Below, piece after piece: positions 17,469 to 29,986 of a DNA stretch of 32,000 nucleotides (positions are counted from its first letter, which is position 1; every line of letters begins with the position of its first letter). Under the pieces are notes generated by a model. The model was not told the DNA's origin and did not search any database. It saw only the letters and a list, made by a program, of their open reading frames with translations. The position numbers and the translations under genes are program-made. The DNA comes from Flavobacteriaceae bacterium (GTDB taxonomy: Bacteria > Bacteroidota > Bacteroidia > Flavobacteriales > Flavobacteriaceae). Location: positions 1,950,001-1,982,000 of the forward strand of contig OZ245049.1 of the NCBI GenBank assembly GCA_965224465.1. The letters run 5' to 3'.

Positions 17469-18755
17469 TTATAATTTTAAAGCGCTTTTCATTTTTCCTT
17501 TAATTTCCTCTAAACATAAATTACCAATACTTCCTTCATGCGTATGGTTCACTATTTTTTCTGGATTAAAAGTTCCTTCTTGTATTTCTTTACCCACTAT
17601 TTTATAAGCATCTCTAAAAGGAATCCCTTGTTGCACTAAAGTATTCACTGCTTCCACACTGAATAAGTACGTGTATTTATCATCCTCCAAAATAGTTGTA
17701 TTTACCTGTATATTTCCTAAGGAATAATGGAGCATTTCTAAACAAGATTTTAAAGTTGAAAAATTAGGAATTAAACTCTCCTTTAACAACTGTAAATCTC
17801 TGTGGTAACCACTTGGAAGATTATTTGAAATCAACGTCATTTCATAAGGCATTGCCTGTAGCTTATTACATTTCCCTCGGATCAATTCAAAAACATCTGG
17901 GTTTTTCTTGTGTGGCATAATACTAGACCCTGTAGTTAACTCGTCTGGAAATGCAATAAATCCAAAATTCTGACTCATGTACAAACAAATATCCATACTC
18001 ATTTTAGACAAGGTTGCCGCCACACTACTCAACGCAAAAGATATAGATTTCTCCAGTTTCCCTCGTCCCATTTGTGCTGCTACAGAATTAAATTTTAACG
18101 TCTTAAAACCTAATAATTGGGTAGTCATCGTTCTGTCAATTGCAAATGAACTTCCATAACCAGCCGCAGAACCTAAGGGATTCTGATCAGCTACTTTTAT
18201 GGCTGCATTTACAAAATACATATCGTCTATCAAACTCTCTGCATAGGCAGAAAACCACATTCCAAAAGAAGACGGCATTGCTATTTGCAAATGCGTATAC
18301 CCTGGCAACAAAACTTTTTTATAACGTTCTGCCAAGGACATCAACAGGTCAAATAAGGCTTTTACATCGCTTTTAACTTCCTGTAATTTATCTTTAGAGT
18401 ACAACTGAACATCTACCAACACTTGATCATTTCTAGAACGAGCTGTATGAATTTTTTTTCCTGCATCTCCCAATTTCTCCGTTAATAAATACTCAATTTT
18501 TGAATGTACATCTTCAAAAGTATCTTCAATAACAAAAGTACCTGCCTTTATTGTTTCAGCGATACTTCCAAGCTCTTTCACCAACGCATCACACTCATCG
18601 CTTGTCAAAACACCAATGCTCGACAACATTTTTGCATGTGCAATATTTCCAATCACATCATATTTTGCCAATTCTAAATCTAACTCTCTATCATTACCTA
18701 CGGTAAAAATATCTATTTTCTTATCGGTTGAAAACCCTTTATCCCAAAGTTTCAT
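17469..18755 (-). CDS. argH: Argininosuccinate lyase
   Basis: 428-aa ORF with the fumarate-lyase superfamily signature GSSIMPHKKNPD. It is the last gene of the arg cluster. Confidence 0.95.
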   Translation of the reverse strand: MKLWDKGFSTDKKIDIFTVGNDRELDLELAKYDVIGNIAHAKMLSSIGVLTSDECDALVKELGSIAETIKAGTFVIEDTFEDVHSKIEYLLTEKLGDAGKKIHTARSRNDQVLVDVQLYSKDKLQEVKSDVKALFDLLMSLAERYKKVLLPGYTHLQIAMPSSFGMWFSAYAESLIDDMYFVNAAIKVADQNPLGSAAGYGSSFAIDRTMTTQLLGFKTLKFNSVAAQMGRGKLEKSISFALSSVAATLSKMSMDICLYMSQNFGFIAFPDELTTGSSIMPHKKNPDVFELIRGKCNKLQAMPYEMTLISNNLPSGYHRDLQLLKESLIPNFSTLKSCLEMLHYSLGNIQVNTTILEDDKYTYLFSVEAVNTLVQQGIPFRDAYKIVGKEIQEGTFNPEKIVNHTHEGSIGNLCLEEIKGKMKSALKL

Positions 18756-18833
18756 TTCTTATCTATTTTATTTATTTGTACTTGTAATATTGATATGCAT
18801 AATTTTTAATCAAAACAAATTTAACACCAAAAA

Positions 18834-18987
18834 CATATCCAAATGACGGTTTAGAAATGAAAATTATTTTTTTATTTTAGCTAGGCGAAAAACGGATGGA
18901 TAGCCTTAGGCTATCGTTCTGTTTTTCAATAACGCTAGAACGTATAACAATCTATTTATATTGGTTATTTTAGATTTTAATTGGCAT
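18834..18987. repeat. Intergenic repeat family, copy A (long form with a roughly 80-bp structured insert)
   Basis: The 5' module CATATCCAAATGACGGTTTAGAAATGAAAAT aligns to 29045-29075. The 3' module AACAATCTATTTATATTGGTTATTTTAGATTTTAATTGGCAT aligns to 29077-29115 and 29941-29980. The interior holds the hairpin GAAAAAC-GGATG-GATAGCC-TTA-GGCTATC-GTTCT-GTTTTTC. Confidence 0.8.
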
Positions 18988-18993
18988 TATTTA

Positions 18994-20052
18994 TTACTGC
19001 ATCACTTTGGACAATAACTCCACATAAATCTCTATCCCTTCTTCAATTTCATTTATATAGATAAACTCATTCGCCGAATGTGACCTTAGCGTATCTCCTG
19101 GCCCCATTTTTACTGACGGGCAGCTCAAAACAGCCTGGTCAGACAAGGTTGCCGAACCATACGTCTTACGTCCCATGGCAATACCAGCTTGCACTATTTT
19201 ATGATCTAACGGAATGGAGGAAGAATTTAAGCGCAAAGATCTTGCCTGTAAATCACATACCGTATGCTGTTGAATAATTTCTAATACCTCTTGGTTAGAA
19301 TAAGCATCGGTCACACGAACATCTACTACAAAATCACATATTGCTGGAATTACATTGTGTTGGTGTCCCGCATTTATCTGAGTCACTGTCATACGAACCT
19401 CTCCTAATGATTTTGATGTTTTTGAAAACTTATAAGATTGAATCCACGCCACATCTTTGAGCGCTTGATAAATAGAATTCACACCCAAACCATGCGCTGC
19501 ATGCCCTGGCTCTCCAATAGATTTTCCATCAATCACCAACAGTCCTTTTTCTGCAACCGCCATTTCCATTTGCGTAGGCTCTCCAACAATTGCTACATCA
19601 ATTTTCGGGATAATAGCCAACATAGAATTCAATCCATTAGGACCAGAACTTTCCTCTTCTGCCGATGCTACTATCACCAAATTATACGCCAAATCCGCTT
19701 GCTCATAAAAATAAGTAAACGCAGCTAATAAAGACACCAAACAACCGCCTGCATCATTACTTCCTAGACCAAACAATTTACCGTCTTTTACAAAAGGATC
19801 CAGTGGATTATTCGTGTAACCTTTATTCGCCCTTACCGTATCGTGATGTGAATTCAATAAAATAGTAGGTTTACTCGCATCATAATGTTTATTTACTGCC
19901 CATACATTATGTACTGAGGTCTCAAAAGGAATGTGATATTTCACAAACCAATCCGCTATGTGTTTTGCCGTTCCTTGTTCCTCTCCAGAGAGAGATTGTG
20001 TTTTTATAAGTTTTTTAAGCAATTCAATTGCTTCTTTTTTTAATTCTTTCAT
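18994..20052 (-). CDS. argE: M20-family metallohydrolase (N-acyl-ornithine/citrulline deacylase, ArgE-like)
   Basis: M20 motifs NSHHDTV and GLGSNDAGG, within the arg operon. The likely start is MKELKKEAIELL (ATG at 20052), which leaves 1 nt between it and the argB stop. The track ORF extends to 20085. Confidence 0.85.
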   Translation of the reverse strand: MKELKKEAIELLKKLIKTQSLSGEEQGTAKHIADWFVKYHIPFETSVHNVWAVNKHYDASKPTILLNSHHDTVRANKGYTNNPLDPFVKDGKLFGLGSNDAGGCLVSLLAAFTYFYEQADLAYNLVIVASAEEESSGPNGLNSMLAIIPKIDVAIVGEPTQMEMAVAEKGLLVIDGKSIGEPGHAAHGLGVNSIYQALKDVAWIQSYKFSKTSKSLGEVRMTVTQINAGHQHNVIPAICDFVVDVRVTDAYSNQEVLEIIQQHTVCDLQARSLRLNSSSIPLDHKIVQAGIAMGRKTYGSATLSDQAVLSCPSVKMGPGDTLRSHSANEFIYINEIEEGIEIYVELLSKVMQ

Positions 20053-20053
20053 T

Positions 20054-20830
20054 CTATAATTTAATATTAGTACACGTTGTAGCATCTGATGAAATCATGT
20101 TTATATTCCCAATTTTAATAGTTGACACCCCTCGGTGTAATGCGCTAAAGCAATTTTCTAATTTAGGCAGCATCCCCTCAGAAATAATTCCTTTTTCCAA
20201 AAAATCAGCATAGGTTTTTGTGTTTAATTGTGTAATCACCGAATTCAGGTCTTTGATATCTGTCAACACTCCTTGCAGCTCAAAACAATACAGCAGTGCG
20301 ACTTCAAAACTAGCACTCATAGCAATTGCAACTTCACTCGCAATAGTATCCGCATTTGTATTGAGTAATTGACCTGCACCATCGTGTGTCAGAGCACAGA
20401 AAACGGGTGTGAGACCTGACAAAATCAATGCTGTAATACTTTTTGAATTTACGTATTTTACATCCCCTACAAAACCATAATCAATGGTTTTTACAGGTCG
20501 CTTTTCAGACACAATCGTATTTGCATCTGCACCTGTTAAGCCAATAGCATTACACTTATTTTTCTGCAATCCAGCTACGATATTTTTATTCAACAAACCT
20601 GCATAAGTCATGATAGCAACATCGAGATTCGCTTTGTCAGTAATTCTTCTTCCATCAACTAAGGTAGGACTCAATCCTATTTTTTTTGCAAATTCTGTAG
20701 CAGATTTACCACCACCGTGTACTAGAATTTTAGGACCTTGTATTTTTGAAAACCGAACGAGAAACAGTGCTAGCTCTTTTGTATCTTCTATCACATTTCC
20801 GCCTATTTTCACAATAGTTAATTTAGCCAT
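20054..20830 (-). CDS. argB: Acetylglutamate (N-acylglutamate) kinase
   Basis: Amino-acid kinase motifs VKIGGNV and VHGGG. The likely start is MAKLTIVKIGG (ATG at 20830), 6 nt after the argF' stop. The track ORF extends to 20866. Confidence 0.9.
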   Translation of the reverse strand: MAKLTIVKIGGNVIEDTKELALFLVRFSKIQGPKILVHGGGKSATEFAKKIGLSPTLVDGRRITDKANLDVAIMTYAGLLNKNIVAGLQKNKCNAIGLTGADANTIVSEKRPVKTIDYGFVGDVKYVNSKSITALILSGLTPVFCALTHDGAGQLLNTNADTIASEVAIAMSASFEVALLYCFELQGVLTDIKDLNSVITQLNTKTYADFLEKGIISEGMLPKLENCFSALHRGVSTIKIGNINMISSDATTCTNIKL

Positions 20831-21773
20831 TTCCCAGTATTTTTTTAAGTACAATTTGCGCTGCAAACTCTCTGTTTTCAGCTTGTTTTATGTGCAACGA
20901 ATTATCAGAATCCAATACCTCATCCGCCACCACAACATTTCTTCGAACAGGCAAGCAATGCATAAATTTTCCGTTATTTGTCAATTTCATTTTTTTACTT
21001 GTAACCATCCAAGCAACGTCTGTACACTTAACTTTACCATAATCATTATAAGAACTCCAATTTTTCACATACACAAAATCTGCGTTTTCAAATGCTTTTT
21101 CTTGATTGTATTCAATAGGAATATCTTTCGTGATTTCAGTATTCAATTCGTAGCCTTTCGGATGTGTAATCACAAAATCCGCCTCTTGCAATTGCATCAT
21201 TTTAACAAATGAATTTGCCACTGCATGAGGCAATGCTTTAGGATGTGGCGCCCAAGAAAGCACAATTTTAGGTTTTCGACCAATAATCTTATTTTCCTCT
21301 ATGGTAATGGCATCTGTCAAAGCCTGTAATGGGTGCCCAACTGAGCTCTCCATATTTACAATTGGAACAGAAGCATATTTCACAAAACTACGCAACACCA
21401 ACTCAGACTCATCAATTTTCTTATCTACCAAACTAGCGAAAGCACGAATCCCAATAACATCTGCATATTGTGATACAACTTGCGCTGCTTCTTTTACATG
21501 TTCTGATTTCCCTTGATCCATCACCGTTCCATCTTCGTATTCCAACGCCCAACCATCTGTACCAAAATTCATCACAATCACATCCATGCCTAAATTCTGT
21601 GCAGCTTTTTGGGTACTCAATCTGGTACGTAAACTGTTATTAAAAAACAATAAACAAATCGTTTTATCAACGCCCAATGTTTTATATTTCAGTTTATCTT
21701 TCTTCAATGCAATGGCATCCTGTACCGTTTCGTTAAAGTTTTCTAAATCATTAATGCTTGTAAAATGTCTCAT
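20823..21773 (-). CDS. argF': N-acyl-L-ornithine carbamoyltransferase (ArgF'-type, acetyl/succinyl-ornithine transcarbamylase)
   Basis: 316-aa ORF with SLRTRLS, HPLQ and HCLPVRRN. It lacks the ornithine-binding DxxxSMG loop of classical OTCase. By my recollection of the Bacteroides fragilis ArgF' sequence, it is similar along its whole length. Confidence 0.88.
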   Translation of the reverse strand: MRHFTSINDLENFNETVQDAIALKKDKLKYKTLGVDKTICLLFFNNSLRTRLSTQKAAQNLGMDVIVMNFGTDGWALEYEDGTVMDQGKSEHVKEAAQVVSQYADVIGIRAFASLVDKKIDESELVLRSFVKYASVPIVNMESSVGHPLQALTDAITIEENKIIGRKPKIVLSWAPHPKALPHAVANSFVKMMQLQEADFVITHPKGYELNTEITKDIPIEYNQEKAFENADFVYVKNWSSYNDYGKVKCTDVAWMVTSKKMKLTNNGKFMHCLPVRRNVVVADEVLDSDNSLHIKQAENREFAAQIVLKKILGNG

Positions 21774-21774
21774 A

Positions 21775-22557
21775 CTATATTGATGTGATTTTTGTAAAAA
21801 CCGAAACCTCGTCTAGGGCTTTGATTAAAAATTGATCCTCTAAACCATTTACTATCCATGTTTCGATACCTGCTTTTTGCGCTATCTGAGCTGCTTTTAT
21901 TTTTGATTGCATACCTCCCGTTCCTCGACTGGATTGCTCTGAAGAAATCTCTTTTTCAATGGCACTAATATCACTGGTTTCCTTTACCGTTTCAGAACAT
22001 CCATTCCGTATAGATTTTTTTGTATACACACCATCTGTATTGGTTCCTATCACTAACAAGTCAACGCTTAACAATACTGCTGTAAGAGCAGCAAGCTTAT
22101 CATTATCACCAAACTTAATTTCATCGGTTGCTACGGTATCATTTTCGTTGATGATAGGAATGTAATTATTAGCCACTAAAATATTGATCGTATTTACAAT
22201 ATTGTCACGCGATTGTTTTTTTTCAAAATCAGAGTAAGACAATAGACATTGAGACGTTAACAGTCCCAACTCTCTAAAATTTTCTTGAAAAATACGCATT
22301 AAATGAGGTTGCCCAATAGATGCCAATGCCTGTTTTACATTAATTGCTTCTCCTTTGCTCTCCAACTGTACAAACTGCTTGGCAGCTGCAATGGCGCCAG
22401 AACTCACAATAATAAATTCATACGCATCACTCAAGGATTTGATTTGGCGTGCAATGTCTTCTATTTTCCCTCTAGAAATATAATCAGACTCTTTGGTCAA
22501 TACATTGGTTCCTATCTTGAGTAGGATTCTTTTTTTATCTCGTTTGTCCATTTCCAA
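21775..22557 (-). CDS. proB: Glutamate 5-kinase (short form, no PUA domain)
   Basis: 260-aa amino-acid-kinase-fold ORF with LLKIGTNVLT, SSGAIAAA and GDNDKLAA. It overlaps the proA stop. Confidence 0.9.
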   Translation of the reverse strand: MEMDKRDKKRILLKIGTNVLTKESDYISRGKIEDIARQIKSLSDAYEFIIVSSGAIAAAKQFVQLESKGEAINVKQALASIGQPHLMRIFQENFRELGLLTSQCLLSYSDFEKKQSRDNIVNTINILVANNYIPIINENDTVATDEIKFGDNDKLAALTAVLLSVDLLVIGTNTDGVYTKKSIRNGCSETVKETSDISAIEKEISSEQSSRGTGGMQSKIKAAQIAQKAGIETWIVNGLEDQFLIKALDEVSVFTKITSI

Positions 22558-23737
22558 AAATATACCATTTATTAGTTACTAAATGTTGCAATCCCATAGG
22601 ACCTCGATGATGCAATTTATCTGTACTTATTGCCAACTCTCCTCCCAAACCAAACTGACCACCATCTGTAAACCTAGTAGAAGCATTGTGATATACAGCA
22701 GCGGCATCCACAGCTGTCATAAATTCTTCTGCTACTTTTTCGTTTTCAGTAACAATCACGGCAGAATGTCCACCTCCATAGGTGTTGATTTTATGAATTG
22801 CTTCTGAATTTGTAGCGACTTGCCCAATTACAATTTTATAATCTAAGAATTCTTCGTACCATACCTGTTCGTTTTCTATCGCAACCACCCCTTCCAAAGA
22901 GCTCATTTTTTCATCTCCTAAAACACGGACATTAGCCAATTCTAATTTTTTTATTAAAACTTTTAAAAAAGTTGCTTTATGAGGCATATTTGCATGAACC
23001 AACACCTTATCTACGGCATTACACGCAGACACCTTGGCTGTTTTTGCATTGAGAATAATTTGAATAGCAGTTTCTACATCAGCCTCCTGATCTACAAAAA
23101 CAAAATTATTCCCCCTTCCACTAACAATTACTGGGCAACGCGCATTTTTCTTTACAAAAGCTATTAATTTTTCACCACCTCTAGGAATAATCAAATCAAT
23201 TTTCTGAGTAGGGTTTTCTAAAAACACCTGCGTTTCAGCTCTTGAAAGGTTTAAATACTCCACCCATTCCGTTGAAATATTACATTGCGACAAAGCCTCG
23301 TGCCATAATGCTACCAATTTCAAATTTGAGTGAATCGCTTCCTTCCCTCCCTTTAACAGAATTTTATTTCCTGATTTAAAAGCAATCCCTACAGCTTCCA
23401 CTGTAACATCTGGACGGGATTCATAAATGATTAAAACAGTCCCAAAAGGCGCCGTTTTATTACTGATTTTTAATCCGTTTTCATGTTTAAAATCATACAA
23501 TTGTTTCCCTAAAGGATCCGATTCATTTGCCAATTCATAAAGAGACATCACCATCTCATTTACCTTCCCATCATCCACTTTTAAACGGTCAAATACCGCT
23601 ATATCATCTCCTTTATAATTGGAAATATCCAAGGCATTTGCTTTTAACAAGTCTTCTTTCCCTGTCGCTATTAATTTTGACATACATAGCAAAACATTGT
23701 TTCTTTGATTGGTTGTTAGCATTTGTGTAGTACTCAT
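22535..23737 (-). CDS. proA: Glutamate-5-semialdehyde dehydrogenase (gamma-glutamyl phosphate reductase)
   Basis: 400-aa aldehyde-dehydrogenase-like ORF with IPRGGEKLI, ACNAVDKVLVH and NASTRFTDGGQFGLG. It overlaps the argD stop by 4 nt. Confidence 0.92.
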   Translation of the reverse strand: MSTTQMLTTNQRNNVLLCMSKLIATGKEDLLKANALDISNYKGDDIAVFDRLKVDDGKVNEMVMSLYELANESDPLGKQLYDFKHENGLKISNKTAPFGTVLIIYESRPDVTVEAVGIAFKSGNKILLKGGKEAIHSNLKLVALWHEALSQCNISTEWVEYLNLSRAETQVFLENPTQKIDLIIPRGGEKLIAFVKKNARCPVIVSGRGNNFVFVDQEADVETAIQIILNAKTAKVSACNAVDKVLVHANMPHKATFLKVLIKKLELANVRVLGDEKMSSLEGVVAIENEQVWYEEFLDYKIVIGQVATNSEAIHKINTYGGGHSAVIVTENEKVAEEFMTAVDAAAVYHNASTRFTDGGQFGLGGELAISTDKLHHRGPMGLQHLVTNKWYIFGNGQTR

Positions 23738-24858
23738 AAGATTTTTTTTAAGGCGGTTATAAAAACATCTATTTCTTTGGTACTAATCGATAAAGGAGGT
23801 AAAATTCTAAGTAATTTTTTATTCATAGCAGCTCCCGTAAATATATGCTCCTCATAAATTAATTTCTTACGTAAATCACCCACTTCAAAATCAAATTCCA
23901 AGCCGATCATAAGCCCTTTTCCTTTGATGTTTTTCACCGCAGGAATACGCATTGCTTGGGCTATAAAATATGCAGAAACAGATTTCACATTCTCCATTAA
24001 TTGTTCCTCTTCTATAATTTGTAAGACTGCCAAACCAGCAGCACACGCCAAGTGATTGCCTCCAAATGTTGTCCCTAACATTCCATAAGTAGCCTTTATA
24101 GATTCGTGTATCAACACCCCTGCCATTGGATATCCATTCCCCATTCCCTTTGCTACGGTAATTATATCTGGTTTTATCTGATGCGCTTGAAACGCAAAGA
24201 AAGTACCACTACGACCATAACCCGATTGGATTTCGTCCAAAATCAATACAGCTTCATACTTCCAACATAATTTCTCCAGCACTTTAAAAAACAAGGTAGT
24301 CCCTTCATCTAATCCACCAACACCTTGAATTCCTTCAATAATAACAGCACAGACATCTCCTTTTTCTAAGTTTTTCTCTAGTAAAAACAAATCGTTTAAA
24401 GGTAAAATAGTCACAGGATTATGCATATTTATTTCTGCTTGAATCTTTTTATTATCCGTAACAGACACGCTTGCTGATGTGCGTCCATGAAAAGAATTCT
24501 CAAAAGAAATAACCCTGCTTTTTCCTGTGGTAAAAGAAGCCACTTTTAAGGCGTTCTCATTGGCTTCGGAACCCGAATTACACAAAAACAAATTATAATC
24601 CTCACAATTGGAAACTTCCCCCAATTTCTTTGCCAACTGTTGCTGTAATGGATTTTGAATGGCATTGGAATAAAACCCAATTGCATCAAGTTGACTTTTT
24701 ATTTTCTCAACATATACAGGATGTGAATGCCCTACAGAGATCACTCCATGCCCCCCGTATAAATCCAAATATTCTTGATTCTTATCATCCCAAACACTAC
24801 TTCCTTTTGCCTTTACAGGAGTTACGTCATACAATGGGTATACATCAAATAAATTCAT
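23734..24858 (-). CDS. argD: Class-III PLP aminotransferase (N-acetyl/succinyl-ornithine aminotransferase)
   Basis: 374-aa ORF with SGSEANE, DEIQSGYGRSG and the PLP lysine context TVAKGMGNG. Confidence 0.9.
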   Translation of the reverse strand: MNLFDVYPLYDVTPVKAKGSSVWDDKNQEYLDLYGGHGVISVGHSHPVYVEKIKSQLDAIGFYSNAIQNPLQQQLAKKLGEVSNCEDYNLFLCNSGSEANENALKVASFTTGKSRVISFENSFHGRTSASVSVTDNKKIQAEINMHNPVTILPLNDLFLLEKNLEKGDVCAVIIEGIQGVGGLDEGTTLFFKVLEKLCWKYEAVLILDEIQSGYGRSGTFFAFQAHQIKPDIITVAKGMGNGYPMAGVLIHESIKATYGMLGTTFGGNHLACAAGLAVLQIIEEEQLMENVKSVSAYFIAQAMRIPAVKNIKGKGLMIGLEFDFEVGDLRKKLIYEEHIFTGAAMNKKLLRILPPLSISTKEIDVFITALKKIL

Positions 24859-24859
24859 A

Positions 24860-25654
24860 TTAAATCTGGTTTATTTTATTAAAAGAAGCCACCAATCCTT
24901 TGATCAATGCACTACTCATTCCTTCATGTTCCATTTCGTTCAATCCAGAAATAGTACAGCCTCTTGGTGTGGTAACTTTATCAATTTCTTGTTCTGGATG
25001 GCTTTCGGATTTCAACAATAAACTAGCAGCACCCAAACACGTTTGGACGGCTAATTGTTGCGCCTCATTAGCATCAAACCCCAACTGAACAGCCCCTTGA
25101 GAAGTTGCACGAATCAAGCGCAACCAAAAAGCAATTCCGCTAGCGCAAATAACTGTTGCGGCCTGCATCAGCTCCTCCTCTACACACATCGTAACCCCCA
25201 AAGCACCAAAAATAGTTTTGGCATAACCTATGTTTTTCTTCCCTTTTAAATTAGCACTTAAGCAAGTCATAGATTCACCTACAGAAATTGCGGTATTTGG
25301 CATGCATCGAATAATAGGTATTCCTTCCCCTAAAAACTCAGAAATCTGTATGATCTTACGTCCAGTAACTACCGATATTACCGTATGTTTTTTAGGATTT
25401 AAAAACGGTTTTATCTCTTTTAAAACTCCTTCTAACTGCGCTGGCTGAACAGCAATAATAATAATATTAGATTTCTTCACCAACTCTACATTATCTGAAG
25501 TCACAGTTACCCTAGGTAATTCAGACCACGAATGCAAAGATTTCACATGTCGTTTAGATAAATATAAAGACATAAAACGAATATCATCATGACTTAAAAT
25601 CCCCAAGGCTATAGAGTAGCCTAAATTTCCGACTCCGATAATTCCTATTTTCAT
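24860..25654 (-). CDS. proC: Pyrroline-5-carboxylate reductase
   Basis: 264-aa ORF with the Rossmann motif MKIGIIGVGNLG and a ProC-like C-terminal dimerisation domain (VTTPRGCTISGL). Confidence 0.9.
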   Translation of the reverse strand: MKIGIIGVGNLGYSIALGILSHDDIRFMSLYLSKRHVKSLHSWSELPRVTVTSDNVELVKKSNIIIIAVQPAQLEGVLKEIKPFLNPKKHTVISVVTGRKIIQISEFLGEGIPIIRCMPNTAISVGESMTCLSANLKGKKNIGYAKTIFGALGVTMCVEEELMQAATVICASGIAFWLRLIRATSQGAVQLGFDANEAQQLAVQTCLGAASLLLKSESHPEQEIDKVTTPRGCTISGLNEMEHEGMSSALIKGLVASFNKINQI

Positions 25655-25666
25655 ATTAATTTTTTT

Positions 25667-26662
25667 TTAAAATGATGATGCTTTTAATTGAAGACCTTCT
25701 TTCTCACAAAGTCCAAACATCAAATTCATATTTTGCACCGCCTGTCCGGAGGCACCTTTTAATAAATTATCAATCACCGTTGTAATAAATAATTGTTTCC
25801 CATGCTTTTCTACATGAATAAAACAATTATTGGTATTAACCACCTGCTTTAAATGCACAGGATTAGTACTCACATGTGTATACGGGGCATCTTTATAATA
25901 GTCCGTAAATAATTGAGATGCTTCTGTTTCTGTTAAATTACTTTCTAAATAAATACTAGCAAAAATTCCCCTAGAAAAATTTCCTCTATTGGGAATAAAT
26001 AAAATATCATCTGTCGTGTTCTTTTGTACAACATCTTTATTTTGCAAGCCTTGTAAACTTTCCGAAATCTCATCTAAATGCTGATGATTAAACGCTTTGT
26101 AGACAGAAAAATTAGCAGACCTCCAACTAAAATGAGTAGTTCCCCCTGGGGAAATACCAGCCCCTGTAGACCCTGTAGTTGCATTTACGTGAATGGTTGA
26201 ATTTAACTTTTGTGCTTTTGCCAAGGGTAAAAGCCCTAATTGTATCGCCGTTGCAAAACAGCCAGGATTTGCAATGTTTGAGGCTTTTTTCACTTCCTCT
26301 TTTTGCATTTCTGGAAGCCCATAAACAAAAGTTCGCCCTCCAAAAACTCGATCTTTCAACAATCTAAAATCATTTGATAAATCAATAATTTTTGTGGTCG
26401 CCGAAAAGTGATGCTCGTTTAAAAAAGCGGTAGAATTCCCATGTCCCAAACACAAGAAAACAACATCCACATTTAAGTTTACAACAGTCGTAAAAGAAAT
26501 CGCTGTTTCTCCTAATAAATCTTGATGCACATCATACAATTTATTACCTCCATTAGATGTGCTATACACAAAATCAATGTGAACATTGTTGTGATGTATC
26601 AACAATCTAATAAGCTCACCTGCCGTATATCCGGCACCACCAATTATACCTACTTGTATCAT
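25667..26662 (-). CDS. argC: N-acetyl-gamma-glutamyl-phosphate reductase
   Basis: 331-aa ORF with GIIGGAGYTAGEL and the catalytic-Cys context NPGCFATA. Confidence 0.93.
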   Translation of the reverse strand: MIQVGIIGGAGYTAGELIRLLIHHNNVHIDFVYSTSNGGNKLYDVHQDLLGETAISFTTVVNLNVDVVFLCLGHGNSTAFLNEHHFSATTKIIDLSNDFRLLKDRVFGGRTFVYGLPEMQKEEVKKASNIANPGCFATAIQLGLLPLAKAQKLNSTIHVNATTGSTGAGISPGGTTHFSWRSANFSVYKAFNHQHLDEISESLQGLQNKDVVQKNTTDDILFIPNRGNFSRGIFASIYLESNLTETEASQLFTDYYKDAPYTHVSTNPVHLKQVVNTNNCFIHVEKHGKQLFITTVIDNLLKGASGQAVQNMNLMFGLCEKEGLQLKASSF

Positions 26663-26664
26663 AC

Positions 26665-27846
26665 TTATGAATTAACGTTGTGATAAATTTTATTTTGTGT
26701 ACTCAATATTTTTATAAACCCTTTAGCATCATCAGCCGTCCAAGCCTTATTCACTTCCCCATATTCTCCAAACTCAGATTTCATTAAATCATGTTTAGAA
26801 TCTATACCATCAATCACAAAATGATACGGCATTAGGGTGACAAATACTTTTCCTGACACTGTTTTTTGAGAATCTGTCAAAAACACCTCAATATTTCTCA
26901 TCACAGGATCTAAATATTGCCCTTCATGGAGCAACATCCCATACCAATTTCCTAATTGCTCTTTCCAATATTGCTGCCATTTGGACAAGACATGTTTTTC
27001 TAACATATGATGCGCTTTAATTGTAACCATAGCGGCAGCAGCTTCAAAACCAACCCTTCCTTTAATTCCTATAATCGTATCGCCAACATGCATGTCTCTA
27101 CCAATAGCAAAAGACGAAGCCAATTTTTCCAATTTCAGAATAGCATCTACTGGACTGTGTAATTTTCCGTTTAGACCAACCAATTCACCTTTTTTAAAAT
27201 GCAACGTAATTTTCATTGGCGCTTGCTCTTGCAATTGACTTGGATAGGCTTCCGAAGGCAAATTCTGATGTGAAGTCAAGGTTTCTACACCTCCAACACT
27301 GGTTCCCCAAAGTCCTTTATTAATAGAATATTTTGATTTTTCCCAAGATGCTTCAACCCCATTTTCTTTTAAATAATCAATCTCTTCTTGTCGCGACAAT
27401 TTCAGATCTCTAATAGGTGATAATATTTCAATTTCTGGCGCTACAGTTTGGAAAATCATATCAAATCTAACTTGATCATTTCCAGCCCCAGTACTTCCAT
27501 GTGCAATATAATCAGCATCAATACTCTTTGCGTAATTCACTACTTCTATGGCTTGAAAAACTCTTTCAGCACTTACAGACAATGGATAGGTATTGTTTTT
27601 CAATACATTTCCAAAAATCATAAATTTGACAGCTTTTTGATAAAAATCCTCTATGATATTTACGCTTTTATGAGAGGTAACACCCATCTGATACGCTTTG
27701 GTTTCTATCACTTTCAATTCTGCTTCCGTAAAACCTCCAGTATTGATTAATACACTGTAAATTTCTAGGTTTTTTTCTTTGGATAAATATTTTACACAAT
27801 ACGATGTGTCCAATCCTCCACTATATGCTAATACTACTTTTTTCAT
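26665..27846 (-). CDS. argG: Argininosuccinate synthase
   Basis: 393-aa ORF with the ATP-PPase motif AYSGGLDTS and GSTGAGNDQVRF. Confidence 0.95.
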   Translation of the reverse strand: MKKVVLAYSGGLDTSYCVKYLSKEKNLEIYSVLINTGGFTEAELKVIETKAYQMGVTSHKSVNIIEDFYQKAVKFMIFGNVLKNNTYPLSVSAERVFQAIEVVNYAKSIDADYIAHGSTGAGNDQVRFDMIFQTVAPEIEILSPIRDLKLSRQEEIDYLKENGVEASWEKSKYSINKGLWGTSVGGVETLTSHQNLPSEAYPSQLQEQAPMKITLHFKKGELVGLNGKLHSPVDAILKLEKLASSFAIGRDMHVGDTIIGIKGRVGFEAAAAMVTIKAHHMLEKHVLSKWQQYWKEQLGNWYGMLLHEGQYLDPVMRNIEVFLTDSQKTVSGKVFVTLMPYHFVIDGIDSKHDLMKSEFGEYGEVNKAWTADDAKGFIKILSTQNKIYHNVNS

Positions 27847-27898
27847 CTTTTACTATTTTAAACATGTAGACTTTCACCTACCATTGTTGTATTTTTTA

Positions 27899-28525
27899 TT
27901 ATATGTTTTTTTTATTCTTTTTTTTCAAAAACAAGGCCTGTTTTATTTTCTTGAGTCTGTTGAGCACCTTAAATTTAGCAGGAGATACTTTTGTGTTTTT
28001 TTCATGTTTCGGATCGTACAACATTCCCGTACACAAACACATTTTTTGCTCCGTTCTCTTTAATACGTCAAAATTCACACAGGTTTTACATCCATCCCAA
28101 AAAGCCTGATCTGAGGTCAACTCCGAAAACGTAACAGGCTGATATCCCAACTCGTAATTTATCTTTAAGACTGCCAAACCAGTGGTAATTCCAAATATTT
28201 TTGCCTGTGGATATTTCTCAATAGAATACTTTAATATTTTTTCCTTAATTTTTTTTGCCAGTCCTCTTTTTCTAAAATCGGGATGTACAATCAATCCAGA
28301 ATTCACTACAAATTCCTTATTATCCCACGTCTCTATATAACAAAACCCCGCAAATACTCCTTTCTCTAAAGCAATCACAGCATTCCCTAATTCAATTTTC
28401 TGAATGATATAAACAGGTGTTCTTTTTGCAATTCCTGTCCCTCTATCCTGGGCCGAAATAGCAATAGTTTCACAAATGAGATCTGCAAATTTTATATGCG
28501 AATTGTTAGCAACTACAATTTCCAT
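27899..28525 (-). CDS. GNAT-family N-acyltransferase, first gene of the arg operon (putative N-acyl-glutamate synthase)
   Basis: It has the acyl-CoA binding motif A HPDFRKRGLAKKI. The likely start is MEIVVANNSH (ATG at 28525); the track ORF extends 48 nt further to 28573. Confidence 0.8.
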   Translation of the reverse strand: MEIVVANNSHIKFADLICETIAISAQDRGTGIAKRTPVYIIQKIELGNAVIALEKGVFAGFCYIETWDNKEFVVNSGLIVHPDFRKRGLAKKIKEKILKYSIEKYPQAKIFGITTGLAVLKINYELGYQPVTFSELTSDQAFWDGCKTCVNFDVLKRTEQKMCLCTGMLYDPKHEKNTKVSPAKFKVLNRLKKIKQALFLKKKNKKNI

Positions 28526-28888
28526 TGCGTTTTTGTATATTTTCCTAAAGCGTATAAAACGATTGTAAAACAATCCTTCTGAATGCTTTTTGGTATTAAT
28601 TATTATGTTTTTTTTGAAATTAAAAGCGGACTCACCACTTTCTTAAAGATATAACGCCCTAGGGGCGACGGCGGTAGCGTCGTAAAGAAATAGATGCAAC
28701 CACAAAAGATACACTAACAGATGTTAGGATATATAAAGCTTGAATGTAAAAAAAATGTTGCAAAATAAAAATGGTACTAATGAAAATAAATAGTTAAACT
28801 TCCCTACTAAAGATTAGCGCAAGGGGCGGCGGCTCTCAAGGCGACAGCGGCGAATGTTTGTAAAACTATATGTATTTATGTTTTTCAT
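28526..28888 (-). promoter_or_regulatory. Long 5' leader of the arg/pro operon with two Arg-codon-rich islands (candidate arginine attenuator)
   Basis: See the leader findings for detail. An ATG mini-ORF sits at 28888-28814 and a second RRYRRRP-stop island at 28703-28659. GC hairpins lie at 28666-28682 and 28655-28667. Everything else in the leader is very AT-rich. Confidence 0.55.
28814..28888 (-). CDS. Candidate leader peptide MKNINTYSFTNIRRCRLESRRPLR (24 aa, six CGC Arg codons)
   Basis: Hand translation, codon by codon, of the reverse complement of 28814-28888. It has an ATG start and a TAA stop, and sits 288 nt upstream of the GNAT/arg operon on the same strand. Confidence 0.5.
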   Translation of the reverse strand: MKNINTYSFTNIRRCRLESRRPLR

Positions 28889-29044
28889 CTGTACAATGAT
28901 ACAACAAATAATTAAACCCGCAAGTAAATGTTTTATTTAATTCTTCCTAAACCACATCATACGCATCAAACTCCAATAAAAAAATCTTCCTATAGACCCC
29001 AACCTCCCTGTTTTATGAATCATAAAAACAAATAATACCAAATA

Positions 29045-29115
29045 CATTTCCAAGTGATGGTTTAGAAATGGAAAATAACCTATTTATATCTGGCATTTTG
29101 GATTGTAGTTGGTAT
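29045..29115. repeat. Intergenic repeat family, copy B (short form with no insert)
   Basis: CATTTCCAAGTGATGGTTTAGAAATGGAAAATAACCTATTTATATCTGGCATTTTGGATTGTAGTTGGTAT joins the 5' and 3' modules of copy A directly. Confidence 0.8.
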
Positions 29116-29335
29116 GACAGAGAATTACACCAAGACCATCGAAATTAACAATAAGAATATCGTTGGACCGCTTGAGTTTTTTTTAAAAAAAAACAACACA
29201 TACCCAGAAACTATTATAGACCTAACGGAAATAACGTCAAGTTTTGGAAGTTTATTGATGATATATGGGGATTGGCTTTTATTTAACAGAACAACTAAAA
29301 GAAACAACCAAGTTTACTTTTTTATATATTTGTAA
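29114..29335 (+). CDS. Hypothetical 73-aa ORF, doubtful
   Basis: Its only support is an open frame with a plausible mixed composition (MTENYTKTIEINNKNIVGPLEFFLKKNNTYPE...). No recognisable motif was found, its ATG lies inside repeat copy B, and a 60-aa ORF is open on the opposite strand. Confidence 0.2.
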   Translation: MTENYTKTIEINNKNIVGPLEFFLKKNNTYPETIIDLTEITSSFGSLLMIYGDWLLFNRTTKRNNQVYFFIYL

Positions 29336-29760
29336 ATGTATTTGTTTACAATAACATTATTTTGTAAACTTAAAGATTTACAAAAAATGAGAAATAAGCC
29401 AAACTCAATGTAAAGGACAGTCTAACGGACATTTTGTCCCTTATAAGCTAAGGGAAAGAAAAGAGTTTTCTTATAAAAAAATAACAGAAAATACGATAGA
29501 AGAAGGATGGAAAATAAAAACGAAATGACAATCGAGTAGACGGCTCTGACTGATATAGCCAGAGTGCGCCTCTCACACCACCGTACATACGAGCTTCGTG
29601 ACGCCTGCCGCTGGGCACATTTCAAAACCAAGAGAATTAAAATTCTCTCAATTTTAAAATGGTAAAAAAAACAGCAGACAGAGTTTAAATTACACAACCG
29701 TCTGTACCCTTTTCGTACAAGTCTAGATTTGGGTTTGGTAGTCTTTAAAATTGGACTTTA

Positions 29761-29872
29761 TTATTCACCTCCTTCTTATTTTTTAGAGGTGTTCATGATA
29801 GCTTCGCAGTTATTCACCTCCTTCTTATTTTTTAGAGGTGTTCATGATAGCTTCGCAGTTATTCACCTCCTT
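29761..29872. repeat. 49-bp direct tandem repeat, about 2.3 copies
   Basis: The unit TTATTCACCTCCTTCTTATTTTTTAGAGGTGTTCATGATAGCTTCGCAG occurs identically at 29761-29809 and 29810-29858. A third copy, TTATTCACCTCCTT, is truncated at 29859-29872. Confidence 0.95.
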
Positions 29873-29877
29873 AATAA

Positions 29878-29980
29878 TTGTTAAAGGCATCCATGAGGTC
29901 GTTCCTCCGTTCTGTTTTTTAACAAGACTAGAACGTAAAACAACCTATTTATATCGGTCATTTTTGATTGTAATGGGTAT
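29878..29980. repeat. Intergenic repeat family, copy C (insert-type interior plus 3' module; 5' module not recognisable)
   Basis: CGTTCTGTTTTTTAACAAGACTAGAACGTAAAACAACCTATTTATATCGGTCATTTTTGATTGTAATGGGTAT aligns with 18915-18987. It has its own long hairpin, TTGTTAAA...GAGG-TCGTT-CCTC...TTTAACAA. It ends 7 nt from the permease stop codon. Confidence 0.75.
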
Positions 29981-29986
29981 AATTAT

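Follow-up and report, generated by a model that had tools for sequence, protein, structure and literature searches.

What is a run of arginine codons that lacks a start codon doing directly in front of an arginine operon? The question is raised by a 32,000-nucleotide (nt) stretch of DNA from a Flavobacteriaceae bacterium (contig OZ245049.1, positions 1,950,001 to 1,982,000; hereafter the window), where such a run, the Arg island (28659-28703, minus strand), ends in a stop codon; 134 nt downstream, the ATG at 28525 opens a GNAT acyltransferase gene, the first gene of an arginine/proline operon on the same strand. We believe that a conserved cis-regulatory leader of the Flavobacteriaceae arginine/proline operon, acting as a ribosome-mediated attenuator, has its sensor end in the island, and we put the probability of this reading at roughly 60%. 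The leader is widely conserved and apparently previously undescribed: we found no description of an arg-operon leader peptide in the full-text literature, subscription journals being outside that coverage, and Rfam 15 returned no relevant match in the window between 27800 and 30000 (E≤10) and none in 12 consensus-type orthologous loci (E≤1).

On the minus strand the island reads GTG(28703) GTT GCA TCT ATT TCT TTA CGA CGC TAC CGC CGT CGC CCC TAG(28661-28659), with arginine in five of six codons, then proline and the stop. As the first-pass annotation had described, and as our rereading agrees, its frame is open back to 28793 with no in-frame ATG and with a GTG at 28703 and a TTG at 28763 as candidate starts; the open stretch counts 44 codons. 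For the short sensor ORF (open reading frame) itself the start is uncertain, and may be the GTG at 28703, the ATT at 28691 or none. The island is the top seven-codon window for CGN codons in all six frames of the 32 kb (5/7), and only 10 windows hold at least four such codons, eight of them at the island, with about 2 expected in shuffles. Within it also lies the GC-richest 25-mer of the 32 kb (20/25), and it has six CpG dinucleotides against 1.2 expected, in a window of 35.6% G+C overall. Given this CGN density, the GC-richest 25-mer and the CpG excess, the Arg island is not a chance feature. After the CGA that opens the run, its arginine codons are only CGC and CGT, although AGA and AGG make up 57% of the arginine codons of the window's genes and CGC 4% (4-8% of genomic arginine codons). 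The plus strand opposite the Arg-Tyr-Arg codons carries GGCGGTAGCGT (28670-28680), an 11/12 match to the Escherichia coli ops element; since this match runs antisense to the operon and is unconserved in L001, the window's closest relative among the orthologous loci (L001-L080), the resemblance is probably a coincidence of those codons, and we treat it as such.

The island belongs to a conserved unit. Across the leaders of 80 orthologous loci from reference genomes, each taken with 2 kb of upstream DNA (counts out of 81 include the window), Arg-rich ORFs are found in nearly all, and the exact Arg-Arg-Pro-stop, written CGY CGY CGC CCN TAA/TAG and followed by GGGTG, occurs in 55/81, its stop about 90 nt before the GNAT start; most of the other leaders carry variants of this unit. 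The suggestion that the island is a conserved regulatory element of an operon leader is thus borne out. In the window, the last codons and the stop fold into a hairpin, H1 (CGCCC-CUA-GGGCG, 28655-28667, minus strand; dG -7.0, pair probability 0.99), whose family consensus is CGCCC-GUAA-GGGUG. A U-rich linker, UUAUAUCUUUAA (28643-28654; 55% T and 6% G across the family), leads from H1 to a second hairpin that the first-pass annotation had not mentioned, H2 (GAAAGUGG-UGAGU-CCGCUUUU, 28622-28642, with the near-invariant core GGUGAGUCC at 28636-28628). H2 follows H1 after about 14 U-rich nt, and 76/81 leaders have its loop core GGTGAGTCC, 60 of them in exact form.

An alignment of 76 sequences of the H1/H2 unit, the window among them, was compared with 500 shuffles and with slid controls. 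Over H1 and H2, 92.6% of cells are paired, and the covariation score is 0.260 against 0.133 in shuffles (0/500 reach it) and at most 0.084 in slid controls. All five outer pairs of H2 covary (column 64:80, for example, is A-U in 32 and C-G in 30), the U.G pair of the window's H2 is C-G in L001, and RNAalifold recovers H2 without guidance. H1, with its 5 base pairs (bp), is mostly invariant, and pair 35:42 covaries (C-G 70 / A-U 5): in five leaders (Autumnicola, Zunongwangia, Salegentibacter and one metagenome-assembled genome) the hairpin reads CGCAC-GUAA-GUGCG and the last residue changes from Pro to Thr, probably through a single evolutionary event. The stop in the H1 loop (columns 38-40) is TAA in 53 and TAG in 7 as aligned, to which 4 gapped T-A cells are added; TGA does not occur. 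The loop is GUAA, a GNRA-type tetraloop, in 46/76 leaders; docking of this loop onto the GG:CC pairs of H2, in the manner of GNRA loops and their receptors in group I introns, cannot be general because the other 30/76 loops are not GUAA. A covariance model built from the relatives and the window matches 28606-28695 (minus strand) with 59.3 bits (E=1e-16), a score that is partly circular because the window is one of its 76 training sequences.

The same unit turns up outside the reference genomes. A scan of metagenome contigs with the 14-mer of the H2 loop gave 120 matching stretches, 80 of which are listed as loci; hairpin arms flank the loop in 5 of those 80, and all five carry H1 and Arg codons (73-81 bits). 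GNAT and/or argG lies directly downstream in 4/5 units, and L127 shows the argG start at the contig edge. The remaining listed matches are chance ones, nearly all within long ORFs, and we rejected the idea that H2 is a generic hairpin. Because the armed H2 loop is found, among the listed loci, only together with H1 and Arg codons, we take H1, H2 and the Arg island as parts of a single unit linked to the arg operon.

Several lines of evidence point to translation of the Arg frame. Of 74 leaders, 54 have an ATG in this frame, whereas the other two frames have one in 22 and 9; the frame's stop sits at one fixed position in the H1 loop in 63/74 and 9-18 nt further downstream in the remaining 11/74. 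In most genera the frame is an ORF of 26-28 codons, and many encode a 26-28-residue peptide of the form MK...[S/P]F[T/V/A]P[T/V/R]RRRP. The Bacteroidetes -7 box lies at -12 to -5 (PMC9723704) and is separated from the transcription start by 4-5 nt (PMC6847099); with the consensus TAnnTTTG and this published spacing, the leader ATG falls 0-4 nt from the predicted transcription start in 61/70 leaders. Judged by these predicted starts, the leader ORFs are therefore leaderless, a class that makes up 5.5% of mRNAs and is rare in flavobacteria (PMC9723704).

The leaders without an in-frame ATG keep a coding signature as well. Across ten of them, from different genera, the six codons preceding the invariant CGC diverge by 0.20/0.38/0.55 at codon positions 1/2/3, and 71/204 differing codon pairs are synonymous in the Arg frame, compared with 13/179 and 17/173 in the shifted frames; codons -12 to -7 show no periodicity (0.62/0.66/0.65). 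Because this third-position and synonymous signature is kept, a very short ORF seems to be translated now, or to have been translated very recently, in the ATG-less lineages. For the window's own island, the support that these relatives lend to translation is indirect.

The leaders come in two architectures. In type A, one ORF runs from the transcript 5' end into H1. In type B, which includes the window, a leaderless Arg-rich ORF1 comes first, then a U-rich zone and, about 140 nt further on, a hairpin H0, the island with H1, and H2. The type B island is a unit of about nine codons, x-R-[R/P]-x-F-x-R-R-P-stop, and starts with ATG in several genera (MRRNFPRRP, MRRFFPRT). In the window, the Bacteroidetes-type sigma-A promoter, read from the sequence, comprises a -33 TTG (28921-28923, minus strand) placed 19 nt upstream of the -7 box TATCATTG (28894-28901), and its predicted start, G 28889, lies 1 nt before the ATG of ORF1 (MKNINTYSFTNIRRCRLESRRPLR-stop, 28814-28888, minus strand), a leaderless mini-ORF in which 6 of 24 codons are Arg, all CGC. 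ORF1 differs by one residue in L001 (MKNTNTY...), and Arg-rich equivalents stand at about -300 in type B leaders. From the -7 box on, the window and L001 share about 95% identity in the leader, which exceeds the 88% of the encoded protein; upstream of the promoter the two are not alignable.

After ORF1 come a hairpin around its stop (CCCU...AGGG) and a U-rich zone (28744-28813, minus strand), with 10-11 T per 12 nt in 13/15 type B leaders and 9 in the window. Pairing is possible between the A-rich 5' end of ORF1 (AUGAAAA) and UUUUCAU in the U-rich zone, some 25-35 nt past the ORF1 stop, and this long-range arrangement recurs in other type B leaders. By its predicted folding, the zone is probably a first attenuator or terminator (T1), and ORF1 with its U-rich zone looks like an upstream tier resembling a more conventional attenuator. 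H0 (CUAAC-AUCU-GUUAG, 28714-28727, minus strand; pair probability about 0.88) has a different loop and the same stem in L001, and a hairpin of variable sequence occupies this place family-wide (mean z -1.15). The first-pass annotation saw the island as a duplicate of the first mini-ORF. The two do share a codon string; against the H1+H2 model, however, the first mini-ORF region scores 5.9 bits (E=7.5) and the island 59.3, and we therefore rejected a duplication of the RNA module.

A general pathway for arginine sensing by this leader can be proposed. Consider a cell in which charged tRNA-Arg, the reader of CGY codons, is scarce. A ribosome translating the leader ORF would park on the Arg codons, and its footprint would hold the 5' arm of H1 and the C-rich stretch, leaving H1 unfolded and the C-rich RNA masked, so that transcription would continue into the operon. 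When arginine is plentiful, the ribosome would reach the stop and leave, H1 would fold beside H2, and the naked leader would be shut off, with about 90 nt of untranslated RNA exposed (134 nt in the window). Folding with ribosome footprints is consistent with this scheme: H1 is the sole conserved helix that depends on ribosome position, its 5' arm being held by a ribosome on the Arg codons, as the first-pass annotation had supposed for the downstream hairpin, and H2 folds in all modelled ribosome states. Because no more than 1-3 codons separate the Arg codons from the stop, the two states would differ in occupancy, with the ribosome present or released, and not in position.

As for the output, Rho entry on the exposed, C-rich and G-poor leader would resemble tna and speF, with hungry-codon sensing in place of ligand sensing. 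The composition of the leader makes this the most likely candidate: C content is 48-59% in the last 20 nt before the stop, positions -40 to -1 are C-rich, G makes up 2-11% at +40 to +79, and the RNA between H2 and the first gene, about 55 nt long and about 100 nt in the window, is A/C/U-rich and G-poor. Alternatively, the output may be weak, factor-assisted termination in the U-rich linker, or a factor may read the H2 loop. In the window, the H1-H2 unit would act as the second tier, and ORF1 with its terminator-like zone as the first.

We hold this proposal in the face of several points that weigh against it. The island lacks an in-frame ATG in the window and in 19 other leaders, where the codon at the expected start is TTA, ATA, CTA, GTA, GCA, GAA or TTG (TTA in the window); here the island would either be translated from a weak non-ATG start or act only as RNA. 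A canonical terminator appears to be missing, H1 having 5 bp and -7 kcal/mol, and by a simple U-run criterion the tails are terminator-like in 22/76 leaders for H1 and 9/76 for H2. No antiterminator was found either: among the 5' end, the pre-Arg segment, the linker, the H2 arms and the tail, no alternative pairing beats cross-species controls, and a helix between the 5' end and the pre-Arg segment, P0, is only weakly favoured (-8.45 vs -6.82). The invariant H2 loop is unaccounted for by the model, and a search of the leader for a partner or pseudoknot gave no conserved one, only G.U-rich matches to U-tracts at varying positions. Since a ribosome waiting at the stop codon would also cover H1, discrimination between the two states would have to be kinetic. 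Finally, the case for Rho dependence is drawn from base composition.

Among the other explanations, the first is the one that the first-pass annotation had put forward, a switch between two overlapping hairpins in which CGCCC-CUA-GGGCG with its U-rich tail is an intrinsic terminator, a paused ribosome prevents its formation, and the peptide ends in the manner of TnaC. Parts of this picture stand. Both hairpins can be drawn (CGACG/CGUCG at 28682-28666, dG -4.8, and H1), H1 followed by UUAUAUCUUU is the only terminator-like leader site in the window by a simple scan, the linker after H1 is U-rich family-wide, and a ribosome on the Arg codons would cover the H1 5' arm. One detail needs correction, the loop being C-U-A and not TAG: of the UAG stop, U and A are the final two bases of the loop, and the G opens the 3' arm. 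The switch itself does not hold. Although H1 is conserved and one of its pairs covaries, the CGACG/CGUCG hairpin stays at shuffle level in the family alignment (42.4% of cells paired vs 42.2%, with slid controls equal) and is outcompeted in the window (pair probability about 0.04); because it is neither maintained nor competitive, an overlapping-hairpin switch is not a conserved design. As a terminator, H1 passes the simple scan in the window and is doubtful family-wide, with its short stem, rarely followed directly by a U-run; the hisG attenuator of Flavobacterium psychrophilum, by contrast, ends in a strong 9-bp terminator stem (PMC9723704). Moreover, expressome geometry, as published, suggests that, with the ribosome in close coupling to RNA polymerase, H1 would be blocked under plentiful arginine as well, which is the wrong sign. 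The Pro-stop end is likewise dispensable: given the R-T-stop variants with their compensatory stem change and the displaced stops (11/74), what is conserved is the H1 stem and not a Pro-stop peptide end of TnaC type. Taken as a whole, we find this account unlikely.

A second possibility is that H1-H2 represents a new class of structured RNA, with a dedicated reader for its invariant GGUGAGUCC hairpin, be it a protein, RNA polymerase or the ribosome. Depending on whether a ribosome occupies the Arg codons of a leaderless mini-ORF, this factor would decide on transcription or stability, and no classical terminator/antiterminator pair would be needed. We offer this as a tentative idea, one that we would not expect to prevail. 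One reader that we considered, the anti-Shine-Dalgarno sequence, was set aside: with a Bacteroidota 16S 3' end of ...ACACCUCCUUUCU, the complementarity of the H2 loop would span only about 5 nt (AGGUG), which is weak.

A third explanation, also improbable, dispenses with translation altogether, with H1-H2 as a structured RNA that binds a protein, an RNA or a small molecule, the Arg codons kept for RNA reasons (a C-rich binding or Rho-loading site, for example), and the two-ORF leaders sensing arginine only through ORF1. It would account for the nearly invariant H2 loop without a partner in the leader, for the persistence of the unit in the 20 leaders without an in-frame ATG, for the folding of H2 at any ribosome position, and for a leader that, between the window and L001, is better conserved than the encoded protein. 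It does not sit well with the Arg frame of most genera, in which start codon, fixed stop and uniform length are all present, or with ATG-less leaders that vary at third positions with a synonymous excess in that frame only; in addition, no Rfam family matches, and the unit is small, with 13 modelled pairs and no obvious ligand pocket. A coding role for the 34-codon frame from the TTG at 28763, as a small hydrophobic membrane peptide whose C-terminus is basic (LQHFFYIQALYILTSVSVSFVVASISLRRYRRRP), is highly improbable, for although the frame is open and a hydrophobic stretch precedes RRYRRRP, there is no ATG, the hydrophobicity follows from T-rich composition, the upstream codons are aperiodic in relatives, the window/L001 differences there are mostly non-synonymous, and neither sequence nor length is conserved in other genera.

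It is useful to set the ribosome-mediated attenuator that we favour beside known systems. The arginine operons of E. coli and Bacillus subtilis are controlled by the ArgR/AhrC repressors and are not known to be controlled by attenuation. The classical attenuators of Proteobacteria (trpL, hisL, leuL, thrL, pheL, ilvL) have, like the arg leader, a short ORF rich in codons for the end product between the promoter and the biosynthetic operon, an RNA structure that overlaps the ORF, and a codon choice biased to particular isoacceptors. Unlike them, the arg leader has its regulatory codons at the C-terminus, in the 5' arm of a hairpin that carries the stop, its ORF is leaderless, an extra hairpin with an invariant loop follows, and there appears to be neither a canonical G+C stem with a U-run nor a detectable antiterminator. 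The arg leader would function as a leader-peptide attenuator does, yet it seems to lack two of the features that define the type, the canonical terminator and the antiterminator. Closer to home, the Bacteroid-trp leader (presumably Rfam RF01692) and the ilvE, hisG and aromatic leaders come from the same phylum and share the general idea and the lack of a Shine-Dalgarno sequence; they differ in serving other amino acids and in having no sequence or structural similarity to the arg leader. Leader peptides are reported in F. psychrophilum for ilvE, hisG, trp and aromatic operons, and none is listed for arg (PMC9723704); the existence of such attenuators for other flavobacterial amino-acid operons makes attenuation plausible for the arg leader.

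TnaC/tna and SpeFL/speF offer a different comparison. There, too, the leader ORF ends near a C-rich region with Arg or Pro and a stop, and a ribosome at the ORF end could block Rho; Salmonella orf34 (speFL) even uses consecutive Arg codons (PMC6386406). However, each of these peptides recognizes a free ligand by means of conserved residues, stalls once the stop codon is reached and switches on catabolic or polyamine genes, whereas in the arg leader only the Arg run is conserved and a hungry-codon stall would be expected to turn on a biosynthetic operon. In TnaC the sensor residues W12, D16 and P24 stand at fixed spacing, and the arg peptides have no more in common than the Arg run and a loose [S/P]F.P motif; as far as the aligned peptides go, we conclude that the arg leader is not a TnaC-type arrest peptide. 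The fungal arginine attenuator peptide, an upstream ORF of CPA1/arg-2, is likewise a short upstream ORF at an arginine-pathway gene that responds to arginine, but it is eukaryotic and scanning-dependent, senses free arginine, stalls at termination and, on reading the peptides, has no sequence relation. E. coli pyrBI resembles the arg leader in that a leader ORF runs through the regulatory hairpin and ribosome position decides folding, and differs in sensing UTP by RNA polymerase pausing and in having a canonical terminator.

The operon downstream fits the codons of the sensor. After the GNAT N-acyltransferase gene (27899-28525, minus strand), identified by NCBIfam scan and homologues and presumed to be the first regulated gene, the NCBIfam scan gives argG, argC, proC, argD, proA, proB, argF', (argB), an argE-like gene and argH, down to 17469 on the same strand; argF' encodes an N-acyl-ornithine carbamoyltransferase and the argE-like gene a deacylase. 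The GNAT protein assigns the organism to the Flavobacteriaceae, and its nearest named relatives are from Lutibacter, at about 75% identity. Arginine genes are thus mixed with proC, proA and proB in the operon (17469-28525, minus strand), and given these pro genes, together with a leader that closes on Arg-Arg-Arg-Pro and has further Pro codons shortly before that, the response of the leader might extend to proline besides arginine. The GNAT protein ends in a conserved Lys-rich tail (27899-28000, minus strand; consensus ...SKVLSRLKKIKQALFLKKxKK) that is unusual for an acetyltransferase and, from its residues, would be compatible with nucleic-acid binding.

Other features surround the leader. 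Between H2 and the GNAT start, an extra hairpin, GAUUGU-UUU-ACAAUC (28575-28550, minus strand; dG -2.8), is followed by GUUUUAU; it lies within about 45 nt that are extra in the window and L001 relative to other genera, and L001 has the identical stem. The start codon of the GNAT gene is part of a small local hairpin (..CAAUG GAAA UUG.., 28531-28505, minus strand); in 72/81 leaders two or more nt of the AUG are paired, with a mean dG of -5.7 vs -3.8 when the upstream 20 nt are shuffled. Such a hairpin could matter in a phylum without Shine-Dalgarno sequences; as a regulated step we rejected it, and we regard it as a modest feature only. The roughly 1.1 kb upstream of the leader promoter (28930-29986) contains no ORF of at least 100 amino acids and is not alignable with L001; a strong hairpin lies near 29616-29664, and a weak microRNA match there is spurious.

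Regardless of the specific output, the leader carries several implications for Flavobacteriaceae, which are major degraders of polysaccharides in the sea and in soil. The alignment and covariance model define a candidate new RNA family that can be used for genome annotation and for predicting arginine regulation. The combination of a leaderless ORF, a sensor hairpin that carries the stop, an invariant H2 and no obvious terminator makes the leader a good system in which to study attenuation without Shine-Dalgarno sequences. Should the GGUGAGUCC hairpin indeed be read by a factor, this would be a kind of attenuation specific to the Bacteroidota and, for an arg operon, the first that senses arginine. 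If the attenuator reading is true, a translation-coupled arginine sensor placed before the arginine/proline operon would be an alternative to repression by ArgR/AhrC, apparently across the Flavobacteriaceae.

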